Assembly: GCF_000026545.1 (NCBI RefSeq)
Contig: NC_011601.1
DNA from: Escherichia coli O127:H6 str. E2348/69
GTDB taxonomy: Bacteria > Pseudomonadota > Gammaproteobacteria > Enterobacterales > Enterobacteriaceae
Reading direction: 5' to 3' (one strand)
DNA length: 64,000 nucleotides
In this document: positions 1-42,146 of the stretch, piece after piece
Layout: each line of letters starts with the position of its first letter
Numbering within the stretch: position 1 is the stretch's first letter
Made by a program: the position numbers and the translations under genes
Notes under the pieces: generated by a model
Seen by the model: only the letters and a program-made list of their open reading frames with translations
Told to the model about the DNA's origin: nothing
Database searches by the model: none

Positions 1-112
1 TTCCGGAAAGCTTTCAGCTTTGAGCCAGTTATTAAAACCCCTTTTGATTTGTTAAAACACCTTGCGGTCTGGCAACTGCAAGTGTCAAACAAGAAATCAA
101 AAGGGGGTCCCA

Positions 113-6978: not shown

Positions 6979-8805
6979 TCAGGCTCCTCGTGAAACAATA
7001 ATCACCACCAGCACCGCCAGTTCAACCAGCGCCATCCGGCAGAACAGCAACGCACTCCCCTCGCACTGCCAGCCCGGCACCAGCGACACCGGATTCAACC
7101 ATTTGCGTAGTTTCAGCACCGGCGCAAACGCCTGTTTCACCGGCATGGCAAAACCGTGAGCGGTAATCACCATTGATTTTTCATGATCGTAGCCGCACAC
7201 CCAGGCCGCGCCGCGGGAACGCGACGGCAAACGATCGCCTTTGCAAATCGCCATAATGATGAATGGCAGCAGCGGGCAGGCAATCAGCAGCAACGTGATC
7301 ATCGGTTGAGAAACGGTGGTGTTAGCAGGCTCCAGCGGCAGAGGTACAGCAGCAGAGAGCATCGGCAGTAGCCACGGCGCAGCAACACCGCCAATTACGC
7401 AGCAAATCGCCAGTGCCACTACGCTTACGCTCATCAGGAGCGGCGCACAGGTGGCGTTTTCGGTCTCTTTGGTACGCGGCGCGCCGAGGAAAGTAACGCC
7501 ATAAACTTTCGCCATACACATCACCGCCAGCGCACCGGTAATTGCCAGCCCCACGGCGAGCAGCGGCCCGAGAAGACGGGCAACAAACGCGCCACTATTG
7601 CTCAGTTTGAAGAAGGATTGATAGATAACCCATTCCCCGGCAAAACCGTTCAGCGGCGGCAGCGCAGCCATTGCCATCAGCCCGACTAACATGGCGATGG
7701 AGATAACCGGCATTTTCTTGCCAATACCACCGAGTTTTTCGATATCGCGATGACCGGTACGGAACCAGACGCTCCCCGCACCAAGGAACAGTACGCTCTT
7801 GAACAGGCTATGGTTAAGCAGATGGTACAGACCACCAACCAGACCAAGGGCAATCAGCGCCGGTTGTTCGAGCGCGATACCCGTTACGCCAGCGCCCAGC
7901 CCCAGCAGGATAATGCCGATATTCTCCAGGGTGTGGTAAGCCAGCAGACGTTGGATATTATGTTCCATCAACGCATACAGACCGCCGACGAATGCGGTGA
8001 TCATACCGAGCACCAGCAGCGCGATCCCCCACCACAGCGGTGCATTACCGCCCAGTAGTGACAGAGTTAAAATGCCCAGCAGGCCAATTTTCATGACTAC
8101 CGTGGAAAACAGCGCGGCAGCTGGCGCAGAGGCGTTGGCATGTGCCTGTGGCACCCAGCCGTGCAGCGGAATAATCCCGGCCAGCAGGCCAAAGCCAATC
8201 ACACCGAGCAGCCAGATATCGGAACCGAGCGGCAGCTGTTGCATACGCATATCCAGCAGGCGCAGATCCAGCGTGCCGTAACGCTGCCACAGCAGCCAGC
8301 AGGCAATCGCCAGCAGCAGAGTGCCAAGACGCCCCAGCGCAAACCACAGTTTGCCCTCTTTGCTGTTGCTGGTGAGGAACACCGCACACAGGGCCATGAT
8401 TTCGGCCATTACCACGAACATGCCGAGGTTGCTGGCGATGACGGCACAGACGGCGGCAGCCATCAACATATTGATCTGCAAGCCGTTGCATTTCACCTGC
8501 GCGTGGCGATGCCAGTCAATGTTGTAGAGGCTGACAAACAGACCGCATAGGCCGAGTGTAATCAGCCAAATCGCATTAAGCGGAGAGATTTGCACATCGT
8601 AGCTTACCAGCGACAGCGCACCGCTCACGCCAACCGCGCCAGTCAGCACAGTGAAGCCCGCGGCTGCCGTATACAGGCTACCCACCGCGCCGCCAATTCC
8701 GGCTATCCAGCCACTTAGCGCTTTTTGAAAAGAAAAGAGAAATGCCAGAACAGCGGCGGCGACAAACCACGCCACGCCGCTATTGATCAGGGAAATTGCG
8801 CTCAT
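6979..8805 (-). CDS. hycC: Formate hydrogenlyase membrane subunit HycC
   Basis: 608-aa NuoL/M-like antiporter-type membrane protein. Confidence 0.95.
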   Translation of the reverse strand: MSAISLINSGVAWFVAAAVLAFLFSFQKALSGWIAGIGGAVGSLYTAAAGFTVLTGAVGVSGALSLVSYDVQISPLNAIWLITLGLCGLFVSLYNIDWHRHAQVKCNGLQINMLMAAAVCAVIASNLGMFVVMAEIMALCAVFLTSNSKEGKLWFALGRLGTLLLAIACWLLWQRYGTLDLRLLDMRMQQLPLGSDIWLLGVIGFGLLAGIIPLHGWVPQAHANASAPAAALFSTVVMKIGLLGILTLSLLGGNAPLWWGIALLVLGMITAFVGGLYALMEHNIQRLLAYHTLENIGIILLGLGAGVTGIALEQPALIALGLVGGLYHLLNHSLFKSVLFLGAGSVWFRTGHRDIEKLGGIGKKMPVISIAMLVGLMAMAALPPLNGFAGEWVIYQSFFKLSNSGAFVARLLGPLLAVGLAITGALAVMCMAKVYGVTFLGAPRTKETENATCAPLLMSVSVVALAICCVIGGVAAPWLLPMLSAAVPLPLEPANTTVSQPMITLLLIACPLLPFIIMAICKGDRLPSRSRGAAWVCGYDHEKSMVITAHGFAMPVKQAFAPVLKLRKWLNPVSLVPGWQCEGSALLFCRMALVELAVLVVIIVSRGA

Positions 8806-9413
8806 TTAGCCTCTCCACTTTGAGCCTGCTGAAACAAGGTGAGATCGCCAAAGTCCGTGTTAAAAGTCAGCTCACGCTTACGTTTGCTGACGCGGGCGAT
8901 ATCGGTGTTATCCACCAGATGCAGGGCTTTAGTCGGGCACATCCGCACGCAGGCCGGACCTTGTTCATCAAAGCTACAAAGGTCACATTTGACGGCGATC
9001 GCGCGAATACCTGGCACCCAGTCAAGCAATGTGCTGACACGCGCCGGAGCAGGCGGTGCCGGTGGCGCTTTCGGGGTATTGGCGTTTGCCGGAATATCCA
9101 GCGGACGGCTGCCGGAAAATTCAATTGCGCCAAACGGGCAGGCGATACCACACAGTTTGCAGCTTACGCACAGACTTTCATTCAACTGCACAGCACCATC
9201 AACACGAGTGATGGCGTTAACCGGGCAGACCACCGCGCAGGGTGCATCTTCACAGTGATGACAGAGCTGCGGCGCAGATTCTTTTTCATTTAGCATCACT
9301 CGCAGGCGCGGCATTGATTGCAGGCCGTGCTGGCGATGCGTCTCTGAACAGGCAGCCTCACAAGTGTGGCAGCCGATACAGAGCGTGGAGTCAGCAATTA
9401 CAAAACGATTCAC
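8802..9413 (-). CDS. hycB: Formate hydrogenlyase Fe-S subunit HycB
   Basis: 203-aa ORF with four ferredoxin-type Cys clusters. Confidence 0.95.
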   Translation of the reverse strand: MNRFVIADSTLCIGCHTCEAACSETHRQHGLQSMPRLRVMLNEKESAPQLCHHCEDAPCAVVCPVNAITRVDGAVQLNESLCVSCKLCGIACPFGAIEFSGSRPLDIPANANTPKAPPAPPAPARVSTLLDWVPGIRAIAVKCDLCSFDEQGPACVRMCPTKALHLVDNTDIARVSKRKRELTFNTDFGDLTLFQQAQSGEAK

Positions 9414-9537
9414 CAGGCATTCCTCAGGTGATTGTCATTTTTGACGAAAACATGCCGATGAAATGTCATTTTCGACACTCATCGACACGCCCATCCCCAA
9501 ACAGGCGTAACGCCTGCAAAACGGGCAAAGCCTCAGC

Positions 9538-9999
9538 TCATGCTACCGGGCTTTGTCCCTTTACCAGTTGGCTTAAATTCACCGGCACATTGTTTTCAAT
9601 GGCGGTATATAAGCTGTCGTAAACGCCAGCGATTTTTTCGAGATAGTGTTCCAGAACTTGTTCGCGATCGCGGATGTTGACCTTGCCATCAATCATGCCG
9701 TCAATGCTCAACTGCGCCTGCGCAATCCGCTGTTTGTCTTCGCCATCTTTTGTTTCGACGTAATACTCGATGGTGTGGCTGTTAAAGCCATCCGCCAGGG
9801 TGACGTAAATGCGAAAATGTTCAAAAAGGACGAAACAGAGTTCTTTGTCCGGCGCGCAGCTCATGGCGTGATGCAGGCGCGCTTTCGATAACGTGATCCC
9901 CTGAACCAGCGAATTGCAGTAGATGTGCCACTGGTCCTGTAGGCGACGATGCCGCTGTGCGATGTAATCGGCTTTCTCGCTTATTTCCCAAATAGTCAT
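9538..9999 (-). CDS. hycA: Formate hydrogenlyase regulatory protein HycA
   Basis: 153-aa ORF; first gene of the hyc operon, divergent from hypA. Confidence 0.92.
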   Translation of the reverse strand: MTIWEISEKADYIAQRHRRLQDQWHIYCNSLVQGITLSKARLHHAMSCAPDKELCFVLFEHFRIYVTLADGFNSHTIEYYVETKDGEDKQRIAQAQLSIDGMIDGKVNIRDREQVLEHYLEKIAGVYDSLYTAIENNVPVNLSQLVKGQSPVA

Positions 10000-13828: not shown

Positions 13829-13901
13829 TAAAATTCTAAATCTCCTATAGTTAGTCAATGACCTTTTGCACCGCTTTGCGGTGCTTTCCTGGAAGAACAA
13901 A

Positions 13902-15980
13902 ATGTCATATACACCGATGAGTGATCTCGGACAGCAAGGGTTGTTCGACATCACTCGGACACTATTGCAGCAGCCCGATCTGGCCTCGCTGTGTGAGGCT
14001 CTTTCGCAACTGGTAAAGCGTTCTGCGCTCGCCGACAACGCGGCTATTGTGTTGTGGCAAGCGCAGACTCAACGTGCGTCTTATTACGCATCGCGTGAAA
14101 AAGACACCCCCATTAAATATGAAGACGAAACTGTTCTGGCACACGGTCCGGTACGCAGCATTTTGTCGCGCCCTGATACGCTGCATTGCAGTTACGAAGA
14201 ATTTTGTGAAACCTGGCCGCAGCTGGCCACAGGTGGGCTATACCCCAAATTTGGTCACTATTGCCTGATGCCACTGGCGGCGGAAGGGCATATTTTTGGT
14301 GGCTGTGAATTTATTCGTTATGACGATCGCCCCTGGAGCGAAAAAGAGTTCAATCGTCTGCAAACATTTACGCAGATCGTTTCTGTCGTCACCGAACAAA
14401 TCCAGAGCCGCGTCGTTAACAATGTCGACTATGAGTTGTTATGCCGGGAACGCGATAACTTCCGCATCCTGGTCGCCATCACTAACGCGGTGCTTTCCCG
14501 CCTGGATATGGACGAACTGGTCAGCGAAGTCGCCAAAGAAATCCATTACTATTTCGACATTGACGATATCAGCATCGTCTTACGCAGCCACCGTAAAAAC
14601 AAACTCAACATCTACTCCACTCACTATCTTGATAAACAGCATCCCGCTCACGAACAGAGCGAAGTCGATGAAGCCGGAACCCTCACCGAACGCGTCTTCA
14701 AAAGTAAAGAGATGCTGTTGATTAATCTCCACGAGCGGGACGATTTAGCCCCCTATGAACGCATGTTGTTCAACACCTGGGGCAACCAGATTCAAACCTT
14801 GTGCCTGTTACCGCTGATGTCTGGCGACACCATGCTGGGCGTGCTAAAACTGGCGCAATGCGAAGAGAAAGTCTTTACCACTACCAATCTGAATTTACTG
14901 CGCCAGATTGCCGAACGTGTGGCAATCGCTGTCGATAACGCCCTCGCCTATCAGGAAATTCATCGTCTGAAAGAACGGCTGGTTGATGAAAACCTCGCCC
15001 TGACCGAGCAGCTCAACAATGTTGATAGTGAATTTGGCGAGATTATTGGCCGCAGCGAAGCCATGTACAGCGTACTTAAACAAGTGGAAATGGTGGCGCA
15101 AAGTGACAGTACCGTTCTGATCCTCGGTGAAACTGGTACAGGTAAAGAGCTGATTGCCCGCGCGATCCATAATCTCAGTGGGCGTAATAATCGCCGCATG
15201 GTCAAAATGAACTGCGCGGCGATGCCTGCCGGATTGCTGGAGAGCGATCTATTTGGTCATGAGCGCGGGGCTTTTACCGGTGCCAGCGCTCAGCGCATTG
15301 GTCGTTTTGAACTGGCGAATAAAAGCTCACTATTCCTCGATGAAGTGGGCGATATGCCGCTGGAGTTACAGCCGAAGTTGCTGCGTGTATTACAGGAACA
15401 GGAGTTTGAACGTCTCGGCAGCAACAAAATCATTCAGACGGACGTACGTTTAATTGCCGCGACTAACCGCGATCTGAAAAAAATGGTCGCCGACCGAGAG
15501 TTCCGTAGCGATCTCTATTACCGTCTGAACGTATTCCCGATCCACCTGCCGCCACTACGCGAGCGTCCGGAAGATATTCCGCTGCTGGCGAAAGCCTTTA
15601 CCTTCAAAATTGCCCGTCGTCTGGGGCGCAATATCGACAGCATTCCTGCCGAGACGCTGCGCATCCTGAGCAACATGGAATGGCCGGGCAACGTGCGTGA
15701 GCTGGAAAACGTCATTGAGCGCGCGGTATTGCTAACACGCGGCAACGTGCTGCAGCTGTCATTGCCAGATATTGCTTTACCAAAACCTGAAACGCCGCCT
15801 GCCGCAACGGTTGTCGCCCAGGAGGGCGAAGATGAATATCAGTTGATTGTTCGCGTGCTGAAAGAAACAAACGGCGTGGTTGCCGGGCCTAAAGGCGCTG
15901 CGCAACGTCTGGGGCTGAAACGCACGACTCTGCTGTCACGGATGAAGCGACTGGGAATTGATAAATCGGCATTGATTTAA
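13902..15980 (+). CDS. fhlA: Formate hydrogenlyase transcriptional activator FhlA (sigma54-dependent, 692 aa)
   Basis: MSYTPMSDLGQQGLFDITRT..., GAF domains, AAA+ GETGTGKE and GAFTGA motifs, C-terminal HTH. Confidence 0.95.
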   Translation: MSYTPMSDLGQQGLFDITRTLLQQPDLASLCEALSQLVKRSALADNAAIVLWQAQTQRASYYASREKDTPIKYEDETVLAHGPVRSILSRPDTLHCSYEEFCETWPQLATGGLYPKFGHYCLMPLAAEGHIFGGCEFIRYDDRPWSEKEFNRLQTFTQIVSVVTEQIQSRVVNNVDYELLCRERDNFRILVAITNAVLSRLDMDELVSEVAKEIHYYFDIDDISIVLRSHRKNKLNIYSTHYLDKQHPAHEQSEVDEAGTLTERVFKSKEMLLINLHERDDLAPYERMLFNTWGNQIQTLCLLPLMSGDTMLGVLKLAQCEEKVFTTTNLNLLRQIAERVAIAVDNALAYQEIHRLKERLVDENLALTEQLNNVDSEFGEIIGRSEAMYSVLKQVEMVAQSDSTVLILGETGTGKELIARAIHNLSGRNNRRMVKMNCAAMPAGLLESDLFGHERGAFTGASAQRIGRFELANKSSLFLDEVGDMPLELQPKLLRVLQEQEFERLGSNKIIQTDVRLIAATNRDLKKMVADREFRSDLYYRLNVFPIHLPPLRERPEDIPLLAKAFTFKIARRLGRNIDSIPAETLRILSNMEWPGNVRELENVIERAVLLTRGNVLQLSLPDIALPKPETPPAATVVAQEGEDEYQLIVRVLKETNGVVAGPKGAAQRLGLKRTTLLSRMKRLGIDKSALI

Positions 15981-16024
15981 CAGATGTGGTTATACTCGAT
16001 CAACATTCAATGAAAGGAGGCAGT

Positions 16025-16453
16025 ATGGCAGTTTCAGCAAGAAATCAATTAACCGGAACAGTTAGCGCAGTAGCAATGGGCGCTGTGAATGATGAAGTAG
16101 AACTGACGCTGGCAGGTGGTGCAAAGCTGGTGGCAATTGTGACTCACAGCAGCCAGCAAGCGCTGGGTCTGGCGAAAGGGAAAGAAGCGATTGCCCTGAT
16201 TAAAGCCCCGTGGGTAACGCTGGCAACGGAAGACTGTGGACTGAAATTCTCTGCTCGCAACCAGTTTGCTGGCAGCGTGTCGACAATCACCGAAGGCGCA
16301 GTGAACGCCACTGTCCATATCAAAACGGATGCGGGTTTTGAAATTGTGGCAGTGGTAACAAATGAAAGTCAGGATGAAATGAAACTCACCACTGGCTCGC
16401 GCGTTATTGCATTGATCAAAGCATCAGCCATCCTGATTGCCACCAAAGCGTAA
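16025..16453 (+). CDS. Molybdate-binding di-TOBE (Mop-like) protein, 142 aa
   Basis: Two tandem TOBE repeats, each starting SARNQ(L/F)xGxV. AAAGGAGG ribosome-binding site 6 nt upstream; starts 44 bp after the fhlA stop. Confidence 0.8.
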   Translation: MAVSARNQLTGTVSAVAMGAVNDEVELTLAGGAKLVAIVTHSSQQALGLAKGKEAIALIKAPWVTLATEDCGLKFSARNQFAGSVSTITEGAVNATVHIKTDAGFEIVAVVTNESQDEMKLTTGSRVIALIKASAILIATKA

Positions 16454-16464
16454 GCGCCGTATTT

Positions 16465-16487
16465 GCCGGAGAGTATGGCTCTCCGGC
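16465..16487. terminator. Bidirectional intrinsic terminator between the mop-like gene and ygbA
   Basis: 9-bp stem gccggagag / ctctccggc with 5-nt loop, T-rich tract downstream on the plus strand. Confidence 0.55.
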
Positions 16488-16491
16488 AGAT

Positions 16492-16836
16492 TTATTTCTT
16501 TGGACGATATTTTTCTGGCAACTCCGGCACCGGACGCTTGTCATCGATGAGATGACGCACGGTTAAGATCGGATGACGCCACAGCATTCTCGGCCCGGCC
16601 CAACGCATAATCTGTTTCATCTCTTCACGCTTTGCAGGCTGGTAACAGTGCACCGGACACTGCTTACAGGCTGGTTTCTCTTCGCCGAACACACATTTAT
16701 CCAGCCGCTTTTGCGCGTAAGCAAACAACGCCTCGTAATGCTCCGGCTCTGCTGACGCCTGCGGGCATTTCGCTTGATAAAGATCGATCATTTTTTTAAT
16801 CGTCAGTTTTTCACGAGAGATACGCTTGCCGGACAT
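16492..16836 (-). CDS. ygbA: Nitrous-oxide-stimulated promoter family protein YgbA
   Basis: 114-aa ORF with CxxC motifs, divergent from mutS as in E. coli. Confidence 0.85.
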   Translation of the reverse strand: MSGKRISREKLTIKKMIDLYQAKCPQASAEPEHYEALFAYAQKRLDKCVFGEEKPACKQCPVHCYQPAKREEMKQIMRWAGPRMLWRHPILTVRHLIDDKRPVPELPEKYRPKK

Positions 16837-16852
16837 GCTGCCTCCATACTCT

Positions 16853-16875
16853 AAGGTGCATTTATATTACAACTT
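16853..16875. promoter_or_regulatory. Candidate NsrR operator upstream of ygbA
   Basis: aaggtgcatttatattacaactt resembles the NsrR consensus (AAnATGCATTT...AAATnCATnTT); ygbA is a known NsrR regulon member. Confidence 0.3.
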
Positions 16876-17120
16876 AACTTTAAAGGGGACTATGGCTCTG
16901 AAGGAGGAGGTTTCTTCAACCGACGAATTTTGCAATCTTGTTTCATCGTCATCACGCAAAAGCTGTAAAGCAGCATTTTTCGCGGAACCGACATCAAGAA
17001 CTCACCTTTCGCGTCTTCCCCTGAAATGATTAACTCCGGTATCATGTGCGCCTTATGTGATTACAACGAAAATAAAAACCATCACACTACATTTAACATC
17101 AGGGAGCCGGACTTAACCCC

Positions 17121-19682
17121 ATGAGTACAATAGAAAATTTCGACGCCCATACGCCCATGATGCAGCAGTATCTCAAGCTGAAAGCCCAGCATCCCGAGAT
17201 CCTGCTGTTTTACCGGATGGGCGACTTTTATGAACTGTTTTATGACGACGCAAAACGGGCGTCGCAACTGCTGGATATTTCACTGACCAAACGCGGTGCT
17301 TCAGCGGGAGAGCCAATCCCGATGGCGGGGATTCCCTACCATGCGGTGGAAAACTACCTCGCCAAACTGGTGAATCAGGGCGAATCCGTCGCTATTTGTG
17401 AACAGATTGGCGATCCGGCGACCAGCAAAGGGCCGGTTGAGCGCAAAGTTGTCCGTATCGTTACGCCGGGCACCATCAGCGATGAAGCGCTGTTGCAGGA
17501 ACGTCAGGACAACCTGCTGGCGGCTATCTGGCAGGACAGTAAAGGTTTCGGCTACGCAACGCTGGATATCAGTTCCGGTCGTTTTCGCCTGAGCGAACCG
17601 GCAGACCGCGAAACGATGGCGGCAGAACTGCAACGTACGAATCCAGCGGAATTACTGTATGCGGAAGATTTCGCCGAGATGTCGCTGATTGAAGGTCGCC
17701 GCGGCCTGCGTCGTCGCCCGCTGTGGGAGTTTGAAATCGACACCGCTCGCCAGCAATTGAACCTGCAATTTGGCACTCGCGATCTGGTCGGTTTTGGTGT
17801 GGAGAACGCACCACGCGGACTTTGTGCTGCCGGTTGTCTGTTGCAGTATGCGAAAGATACCCAACGCACGACCCTGCCGCATATTCGTTCTATCACTATG
17901 GAACGTCAGCAGGACAGCATCATTATGGATGCCGCGACGCGTCGTAACCTGGAAATTACTCAGAACCTGGCCGGCGGTGCGGAAAATACGCTGACCTCAG
18001 TGCTCGACTGCACTGTAACGCCGATGGGTAGTCGTATGCTGAAACGCTGGCTGCATATGCCAGTGCGCGATACCCGCGTGTTGCTTGAGCGCCAGCAAAC
18101 TATTGGCGCATTGCAGGATTTCACCGCCGAGCTACAGCCGGTACTGCGTCAGGTCGGCGACCTGGAACGTATTCTGGCGCGTCTGGCGTTGCGTACCGCT
18201 CGCCCACGCGATCTGGCCCGTATGCGTCACGCTTTCCAGCAACTGCCGGAGTTGCGTGCGCAGTTAGAAAATGTCGATAGTGCACCGGTACAAGCGCTGC
18301 GTGAGAAGATGGGCGAGTTTGCCGAACTGCGCGACCTGCTGGAGCGAGCAATCATCGACACGCCGCCGGTGCTGGTACGCGATGGTGGTGTTATTGCGAC
18401 TGGTTATAACGAAGAACTGGATGAATGGCGTGCGCTGGCCGACGGCGCGACCGATTATCTGGAACGTCTGGAAGTCCGCGAGCGTGAACGTACCGGCCTG
18501 GACACGCTGAAAGTTGGCTTTAATGCGGTGCACGGCTACTACATTCAAATCAGCCGTGGGCAAAGCCATCTGGCACCAATCAACTACATGCGTCGCCAGA
18601 CGCTGAAAAACGCCGAGCGCTACATCATTCCAGAGCTAAAAGAGTACGAAGATAAAGTTCTCACCTCAAAAGGCAAAGCACTGGCTCTGGAAAAACAACT
18701 TTATGAAGAGCTGTTCGACCTGCTGTTGCCGCATCTGGAAGCGTTGCAACAGAGCGCGAGCGCGCTGGCGGAACTCGACGTGCTGGTGAACCTGGCGGAG
18801 CGGGCCTATACCCTGAACTACACCTGCCCGACCTTTATTGATAAACCTGGCATTCGCATTACCGAAGGTCGCCATCCGGTAGTTGAACAAGTACTGAATG
18901 AGCCGTTTATCGCTAACCCGCTGAACCTGTCGCCGCAGCGTCGCATGTTGATCATTACCGGTCCGAACATGGGAGGTAAAAGTACCTATATGCGCCAGAC
19001 CGCGTTGATTGCGCTGATGGCGTATATCGGCAGCTACGTACCGGCGCAAAAAGTCGAGATTGGCCCGATTGACCGTATCTTTACCCGCGTAGGTGCCGCG
19101 GATGATCTGGCTTCCGGGCGTTCAACCTTTATGGTGGAGATGACCGAAACCGCCAATATTTTACATAACGCCACCGAATACAGTCTGGTGTTGATGGACG
19201 AGATCGGGCGTGGAACGTCCACTTACGATGGTCTGTCGCTGGCGTGGGCATGCGCGGAAAATCTGGCAAATAAGATCAAAGCGTTGACGCTGTTTGCTAC
19301 CCACTATTTCGAGCTGACCCAGTTACCGGAGAAAATGGAAGGCGTCGCCAACGTGCATCTCGATGCACTGGAGCACGGCGACACCATTGCCTTTATGCAT
19401 AGCGTGCAGGATGGCGCAGCGAGCAAAAGCTACGGCCTGGCGGTTGCAGCTCTGGCGGGTGTGCCAAAAGAGGTTATTAAGCGCGCACGGCAAAAACTGC
19501 GTGAGCTGGAAAGCATTTCGCCGAACGCCGCTGCTACGCAAGTGGATGGTACACAAATGTCTTTGCTGTCCGTACCGGAAGAAACTTCGCCTGCGGTCGA
19601 GGCACTGGAAAACCTCGACCCGGATTCATTGACTCCGCGTCAGGCGCTGGAGTGGATTTATCGCTTGAAGAGTCTGGTGTAA
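17121..19682 (+). CDS. mutS: DNA mismatch repair protein MutS (853 aa)
   Basis: Full-length [40 protein letters not shown]... including Walker [10 protein letters not shown]. Confidence 0.98.
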
Positions 19683-41900: not shown

Positions 41901-42146
41901 ACCCATACAATGTCTTGCCTCCTTGCAAAGAAGAGACTAACATCCGAATTGCTTAGGTTCGAACGTAGGCCTCAGGTTGATAGAAATATCGCCTGGGGCT
42001 TTTGTCCATCTGGAACCTCGCGAATGCTTAACGCCAGACAGCCTCAAGCACCCAACGCCATTCTATACCTGTTAATTTTCCCTGCGATGTTCACCTTTAA
42101 ATGCCGGAATGCTGCTCGCAAAATAAAAACGCCCCATCATTTCTGA
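40872..42146 (+). CDS. DDE-type (rve/integrase core) transposase with N-terminal HTH, IS481-family-like
   Basis: HTH (ISAASEAFGVSCRTLYWWRQ), DDE residues in GMDAIE / ITDNGKEF / ERFNRTLRE, and C-terminal KRPHKALALMTPVEY. The last ~80 codons of the 424-aa ORF may be read-through into flanking DNA. Confidence 0.7.
   Translation: MQMQHLMVGYPKYYQTADYALRLSVMADIATMRMKALHFWDKHGISAASEAFGVSCRTLYWWRQLLNKEGPEGLIPHSKAPLVRRKKHWHPDVLKEIRRLRTELPNLGKEQIFVRLKPWCEQRYLACPSVSTIGRMIAAAHDKMRMIPVRLGSRGKALLVKKRSAKPRRPKHYRPVKTGELIGMDAIELRMGELRRYVITMIDECSNYALALAVPSLNSDIVNHFFSRAARLFPVGISQIITDNGKEFLGNFDKTLQEAAIKHLWTYPYTPKMNAICERFNRTLREQFIEFNEILLFEDLALFNQKLAEYLVLYNSKRPHKALALMTPVEYILKENKNCNMWWTHTMSCLLAKKRLTSELLRFERRPQVDRNIAWGFCPSGTSRMLNARQPQAPNAILYLLIFPAMFTFKCRNAARKIKTPHHF

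Follow-up and report, generated by a model that had tools for sequence, protein, structure and literature searches.

A probable NsrR operator of ygbA in Escherichia coli O127:H6 strain E2348/69, with a distal half-site that seems to double as the -10 hexamer

The 23 bp at positions 16853-16875 of the window, the 64,000-nucleotide stretch of DNA analysed here, most probably constitute the operator through which NsrR controls ygbA, with the half-site farther from the gene doubling as the -10 hexamer of the ygbA promoter and repression operating by occlusion of RNA polymerase, a reading to which we assign a probability of roughly 0.88. The window matches E. coli O127:H6 strain E2348/69 exactly, and on its plus strand the site reads aaggtgcatttatattacaactt, that is, AAGGTGCATTTATATTACAACTT, the same 23 bases that the earlier note had quoted. 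It lies in the intergenic region between ygbA and mutS, 17-39 nt upstream of the ygbA ATG (16836..16834, minus strand), and it conforms to the E. coli-type NsrR motif, a 23-bp inverted repeat of 11-1-11 structure, AAGATGCATTT-N-AAATGCATCTT. That NsrR targets this site is not new, the very same 23-mer having been published, and the sole, modest addition made here is evidence from the comparison of genera that operator and -10 hexamer may share bases. The site and its surroundings are laid out as follows.

13866-15980, plus strand: fhlA, from the local gene order.
About 15986-16453, plus strand: gene for a TOBE-domain protein, from the local gene order.
16461..16491, no strand assigned: GC-rich hairpin of 14 pairs followed by a T-run, found in a scan for terminator-like structures between the convergent TOBE-domain gene and ygbA.
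16492..16836, minus strand: coding sequence of ygbA (114 aa), the regulated gene, from the open reading frame and the Pfam, NCBIfam and RefSeq annotation.
16843..16847, minus strand: Shine-Dalgarno sequence GGAGG of ygbA, read from the sequence and invariant among E. coli haplotypes.
16853..16875, minus strand: NsrR operator, an imperfect 11-1-11 inverted repeat reading AAGTTGTAATA-T-AAATGCACCTT on the ygbA strand.
16853..16863, plus strand: promoter-proximal half-site AAGGTGCATTT, read from the sequence and matching 10 of the 11 bases of the consensus AAGATGCATTT.
16865..16875, minus strand: promoter-distal half-site AAGTTGTAATA, matching 7 of the 11 consensus bases.
17121-19682, plus strand: mutS, from the local gene order.

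The identity of the regulated gene is secure, the 114-aa open reading frame matching the Pfam family YgbA_NO (E=4.1e-41) and the corresponding NCBIfam equivalog model (268.8 bits against a cut-off of 234), and carrying the name ygbA in RefSeq. The reported induction of ygbA is by nitric oxide, which makes "nitrous oxide-stimulated promoter" an apparent misnomer for the family. The protein has a cysteine at position 24 and a C48-X8-C57-X2-C60-X3-C64 cluster, a pattern that suggests a metal or Fe-S site. Downstream of the gene, the hairpin at 16461-16491 probably acts as a bidirectional intrinsic terminator at the end of the ygbA unit. The convergent gene beyond it (15986-16453, plus strand), which encodes a molbindin-like TOBE domain, occurs in E2348/69 and in certain other lineages; K-12-like and O157:H7 strains do not have it, so that ygbA directly follows fhlA in them, an arrangement that fits the fhlA/-/mutS island hotspot (PMC7232297). 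Elsewhere in the window, two Rfam models gave gathering-level matches: the Hfq-binding sRNA STnc490 at positions 1-103 (plus strand, cut at its 5' end, 108.5 bits) and the sok antitoxin RNA at 41904-42053 (minus strand, 104.6 bits), the latter implying a hok/sok locus near 42 kb.

The resemblance to NsrR operators was assessed with a symmetric weight matrix built from 16 distinct ChIP-seq-positive 11-1-11 sites (Mehta et al., 2015; PMC5320621, Table 4), a training set from which ygbA is absent because it was ChIP-negative in that study. On this ygbA-independent matrix the site scores 22.2 bits, more than 12 of the 16 training sites, and ranks first among the 63,978 positions of the window; none of 200 Markov-1 random sequences of 64 kb reached that value, their mean maximum being 13.7 bits. 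A simple consensus comparison agrees, the site differing from the 11-1-11 consensus AAGATGCATTTNAAATGCATCTT at five of its 22 specified bases, against a mean of 9.9 mismatches for the best match in shuffled versions of the intergenic region, not one of which (0/300) came down to five. The likeness to the NsrR consensus that the earlier note had seen in these bases is hence borne out, and the weight-matrix scan that it had proposed as a check, which might have returned a poor score, instead places the site in the upper half of the validated ones.

The second-best matrix match in the window, AACATGCCGATGAAATGTCATTT at 9449-9471, lies 7.4 kb from ygbA, between hycA (9538-9999, minus strand) and hycB (8802-9413, minus strand). 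It is itself an NsrR 11-1-11 site that was ChIP-seq-positive in E. coli CFT073, and its lower score of 16.9 bits is not independent, as the hycB site belongs to the training set of the matrix. The two genes also differ in their response, hycB being down-regulated under nitrate (0.01-fold), unlike ygbA, which is induced. The NsrR operators of ytfE and hmp belong to the same 11-1-11 family, answer to the same repressor and, like that of ygbA, lie near the start codons of NO-induced genes. Whereas the ytfE operator is a perfect palindrome (31.8 bits on the same matrix), the ygbA site combines one strong half with one weak half (7/11).

Much of this regulation has been described before. The identical 23-mer was printed as the predicted NsrR site of ygbA in strain CFT073, at the same gene and position as in E2348/69, with a PatSer ln(P) of -16.65 against a threshold of -14.28 (Mehta et al., 2015; PMC5320621, Table 4). 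NsrR-dependent repression of ygbA is on record for both K-12 and Salmonella. In the accounts given in PMC5320621 and PMC2884951, ygbA is a known NsrR-regulated gene on the basis of reporter fusions in K-12 (Bodenmiller and Spiro, 2006), and the K-12 ygbA promoter was bound by NsrR in ChIP-chip experiments (Partridge et al., 2009, as cited in PMC5320621). In Salmonella Typhimurium, ygbA mRNA was 31.8-fold higher in an nsrR mutant (PMC2884951). These sources substantiate the earlier statement that ygbA is a reported NsrR target in E. coli, with the K-12 evidence as cited in PMC5320621 and the Salmonella evidence in PMC2884951. The text of PMC5320621 also places ygbA among the 50 most up-regulated genes of its Table 1, although no row of that name is visible in the table.

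The single real caveat is that aerobic ChIP-seq in CFT073, which carries the same 23-mer, gave no NsrR peak at ygbA (PMC5320621). Taken at face value, this result would fit a genuine NsrR-type motif that is poorly occupied in vivo in the B2 haplotype, with the induction of ygbA by NO or nitrate running mainly through other regulators, and the contrast with the ChIP-chip-positive K-12 haplotype (PMC5320621) points the same way. The K-12 site occupies the same alignment columns and differs at 3 of the 23 bases, reading AAGATGTAATATAAATACATCTT on the ygbA strand, with CATCTT where B2 strains have CACCTT. These differences leave the matrix score unchanged, however, at 22.2 bits for the window (B2) and 22.3 for K-12, and the distinguishing base, a G at position 4 of the half-site, is the state most often seen at this operator in other genera: read along the ygbA strand, G stands at site position 4 in 50 of 81 loci, and C, the E2348/69 state, at position 20 in 21 of 81. 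Furthermore, the same ChIP-seq experiment missed yeaR, a strong and well-validated NsrR target, which indicates limited sensitivity, and Mehta et al. regard the negative result at ygbA as a probable false negative of the same kind (PMC5320621). Poor occupancy of the B2 haplotype is, on balance, an improbable explanation.

Within E. coli, the operator varies less than its immediate flanks. The ygbA-mutS intergenic region is unusually divergent, 2,871 of 5,420 E. coli records being only 80-90% identical to the window over the compared interval (16780-17125), a degree of polymorphism that fits the character of the fhlA/-/mutS locus as a known hotspot where islands come and go (PMC7232297). When nine representative haplotypes are aligned, variation affects 3 of the 23 operator columns, against 15 of the 50 columns upstream and 7 of the 17 between the site and the ATG (22 of 67 in the flanks together), and every E. 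coli operator haplotype scores between 21.4 and 23.3 bits on the same matrix. Substitutions are concentrated in the 100 bp on the upstream side of the operator, and the roughly 60 bp next to mutS are invariant, more conserved even than the operator, so that this footprint within the species is supportive without being decisive on its own.

Several strain-level features of the region may be recorded here. Only eight records are at least 99% identical to the window over the intergenic region. A 1-bp deletion immediately after the site on the ygbA strand further separates E2348/69 from K-12; relative to all other sampled haplotypes the strain lacks one A at 16852/16853 (alignment column 275), with CACCTT-AGAG in place of CACCTTAAGAG, and its predicted leader is consequently 1 nt shorter. 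In E. coli A2, from a platypus (locus L008, about 601-800), an element of the IS3 family is inserted some 65 bp upstream of the operator and replaces the rest of the ygbA-mutS region, leaving the operator and the putative promoter intact.

The site is also conserved across genera. A search of genome contigs for YgbA yielded 80 loci, drawn from about 25 Enterobacterales genera, including Escherichia, Citrobacter, Salmonella, Enterobacter, Klebsiella, Raoultella, Kluyvera, Leclercia, Lelliottia, Pluralibacter, Trabulsiella, Phytobacter, Rahnella, Hafnia and others. In 79 of the 80, the best matrix match in the 300 nt upstream of the gene ends 12-25 nt before the start codon, with a mode of 18. 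The median score of these sites is 19.1 bits, and 66 of the 80 loci reach at least 15 bits, whereas at other positions of these loci the best match has a median score of 5.55 bits and never exceeds 14.3. When the sequences are anchored on the site, the information content averages 1.40 bits per position over its 23 bp and 0.20 over the 70 bp upstream, and anchoring does not account for the footprint, since the same best-match procedure on shuffled upstream regions gives only 0.26 bits per position. The orthologues of ygbA thus share a phylogenetic footprint at this position, with the consensus AAgkTGTAttATaaATGCAnCTT on the ygbA strand. Two loci depart from the pattern. In Enterobacteriaceae bacterium UBA5654 (L079) the operator has decayed to AAGAGGTAACATTCAAGCCTCTT, which scores 2.8 bits at the usual position and keeps the -10-like TAACAT but not ATGCA, and in Hafnia paralvei (L084) the called start is 41 nt away from the best site.

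The pattern of conservation inside the site suggests that it carries a second signal. Site positions 7, 8, 11 and 12 are T, A, A and T in 81, 81, 80 and 81 of 81 sequences, respectively. At position 11 the NsrR consensus favours T, and it leaves position 12 free, but the ygbA loci have A in 80 and T in 81 of 81 at these positions. The resulting TAnnAT, whose four fixed bases are the key positions of a -10 hexamer, occurs as TATTAT, TAATAT, TAGAAT or TAAAAT across genera. The promoter elements that this would imply in E2348/69 are the following.

16864..16869, minus strand: putative -10 hexamer TAATAT (site positions 7-12), from the TAnnAT conserved across 81 loci.
16887..16892, minus strand: putative weak -35 hexamer TAGTCC, matching 3 of 6 positions and lying exactly 17 bp upstream of the -10.
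16857, minus strand: predicted transcription start at site position 19, an A in 78 of 81 loci, 7 nt downstream of the putative -10, with an uncertainty of about 2 nt.

A G at -15 is kept in 75 of 81 loci and is preceded by T/C and T, giving a conserved TTG that a 17-bp spacer separates from the -10. A scan of 16400-17200 with the sigma-70 consensus found no promoter, because the -35 element matches at only three of six positions, and the promoter model consequently draws on conservation across genera; a literature search found no mapped transcription start for ygbA. On the strength of that conservation, the operator seems to overlap both the -10 hexamer and the start site. We know of no explicit description of an invariant -10 hexamer inside an NsrR half-site across about 25 genera.

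Such an overlap raises the question of whether the conserved block might be the core promoter of ygbA and nothing else, its -10, discriminator and start site accounting for the conservation and its likeness to an NsrR site being coincidental. Positions 7-12 do behave like a -10 hexamer and not like an NsrR half-site, and the site is AT-rich, as any promoter would be. Outside the -10, however, the strongest conservation falls on ATGCA (positions 16-19) and on the symmetric AA...CTT ends, elements that a promoter does not need and that form the core of the NsrR motif; in the gene-proximal half, which reads AAATGCACCTT on the ygbA strand, ATGCA and CTT persist in 70-81 of the 81 loci. The site moreover attains 22 bits although the matrix was derived from unrelated promoters, and genetic evidence attests to nsrR-dependent repression in both E. 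coli and Salmonella (PMC5320621, PMC2884951). A coincidental resemblance is accordingly very hard to credit.

Other regulators were sought in the intergenic region between ygbA and mutS (16837-17120) with consensus strings for FNR, Fur, IscR (types 1 and 2), NarL/NarP (7-2-7) and CRP. Matches to all of them in 16837-17120 stayed at chance level, and no significant one coincided with the site. The least credible of the alternatives is hence that the site is the target of IscR (another Rrf2 protein), FNR, Fur or NarL/NarP: ygbA does respond to nitrate under anaerobic conditions, in which FNR and NarL/NarP also come into play, and Rrf2 proteins do bind related palindromes, but only the NsrR consensus outperforms shuffled sequences in this interval, and the 70 nt upstream of the site contain no second conserved block across genera.

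The remainder of the intergenic region yielded little else. An Rfam scan of the whole window returned nothing between ygbA and mutS. A 51-aa open reading frame located there (16890-17045, minus strand) was considered as a possible part of the system and set aside, having no family match and lying in a region that is not conserved across genera. In non-B2 strains the PGAP annotation treats an equivalent frame of 44-59 aa as encoding a hypothetical protein (e.g., WP_000611932.1); it marks the frame as frameshifted in strain CT265 and leaves it out in E2348/69, and the frame is probably spurious.

An operator of this kind calls for its repressor, and nsrR is present and intact in the E2348/69 chromosome, outside the window, where it was found by synteny (NZ_LT827011.1, 4636642-4637067). 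Its 141-aa product scores 292.8 bits against the NCBIfam equivalog model (cut-off 182) and retains the three cysteines, in NCSSEFCHITPAC. Nitrosylation of the NsrR [Fe-S] cluster by NO is established as the event that relieves repression (summarised in PMC5320621). Taken together with the matrix score, the published 23-mer and the conservation across about 25 genera, the intact nsrR gene lends support to the expectation voiced in the earlier note that the customary nitrosative-stress regulation would operate here.

In the model that we favour, NsrR, an [Fe-S] repressor of the Rrf2 family, would control ygbA through 16853-16875 by means of a strong gene-proximal half, AAGGTGCATTT, and a weaker distal half, AAGTTGTAATA, which would double as the sigma-70 -10 element. 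The distal half matches the consensus at only 7 of 11 positions, presumably because the same bases encode the -10 hexamer. Relative to the predicted start, the operator would cover about -18 to +5, so that bound NsrR would sterically exclude RNA polymerase. Upon nitrosylation of its cluster by NO, the repressor would be released, and the ygbA transcript then made would begin with a leader of about 20 nt. The occlusion step thus depends on the placement of the -10, the -35 and the start site, which we infer from the sequence comparison.

One may go further and suppose that the ygbA operator is a deliberately asymmetric, promoter-embedded site, whose distal half, having to spell a -10 hexamer, can never approach the NsrR consensus, and that ygbA is in this way a low-affinity member of the regulon, derepressed early. 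This extension is speculative and, in our judgement, rather unlikely to hold; if true, the low affinity of an asymmetric site could explain why ygbA escaped detection by ChIP-seq in a B2 strain with the same haplotype.

Beyond annotation, the site carries little weight as an ordinary feature of the genome, and the description of it as minor in the earlier note was apt. The bases that operator and -10 hexamer appear to share do provide a concrete, testable promoter model for ygbA. For the biology of this EPEC strain, the evidence points to the retention of the standard NsrR-ygbA nitrosative-stress circuit, despite the position of ygbA in the fhlA/mutS hotspot of recombination and island exchange.
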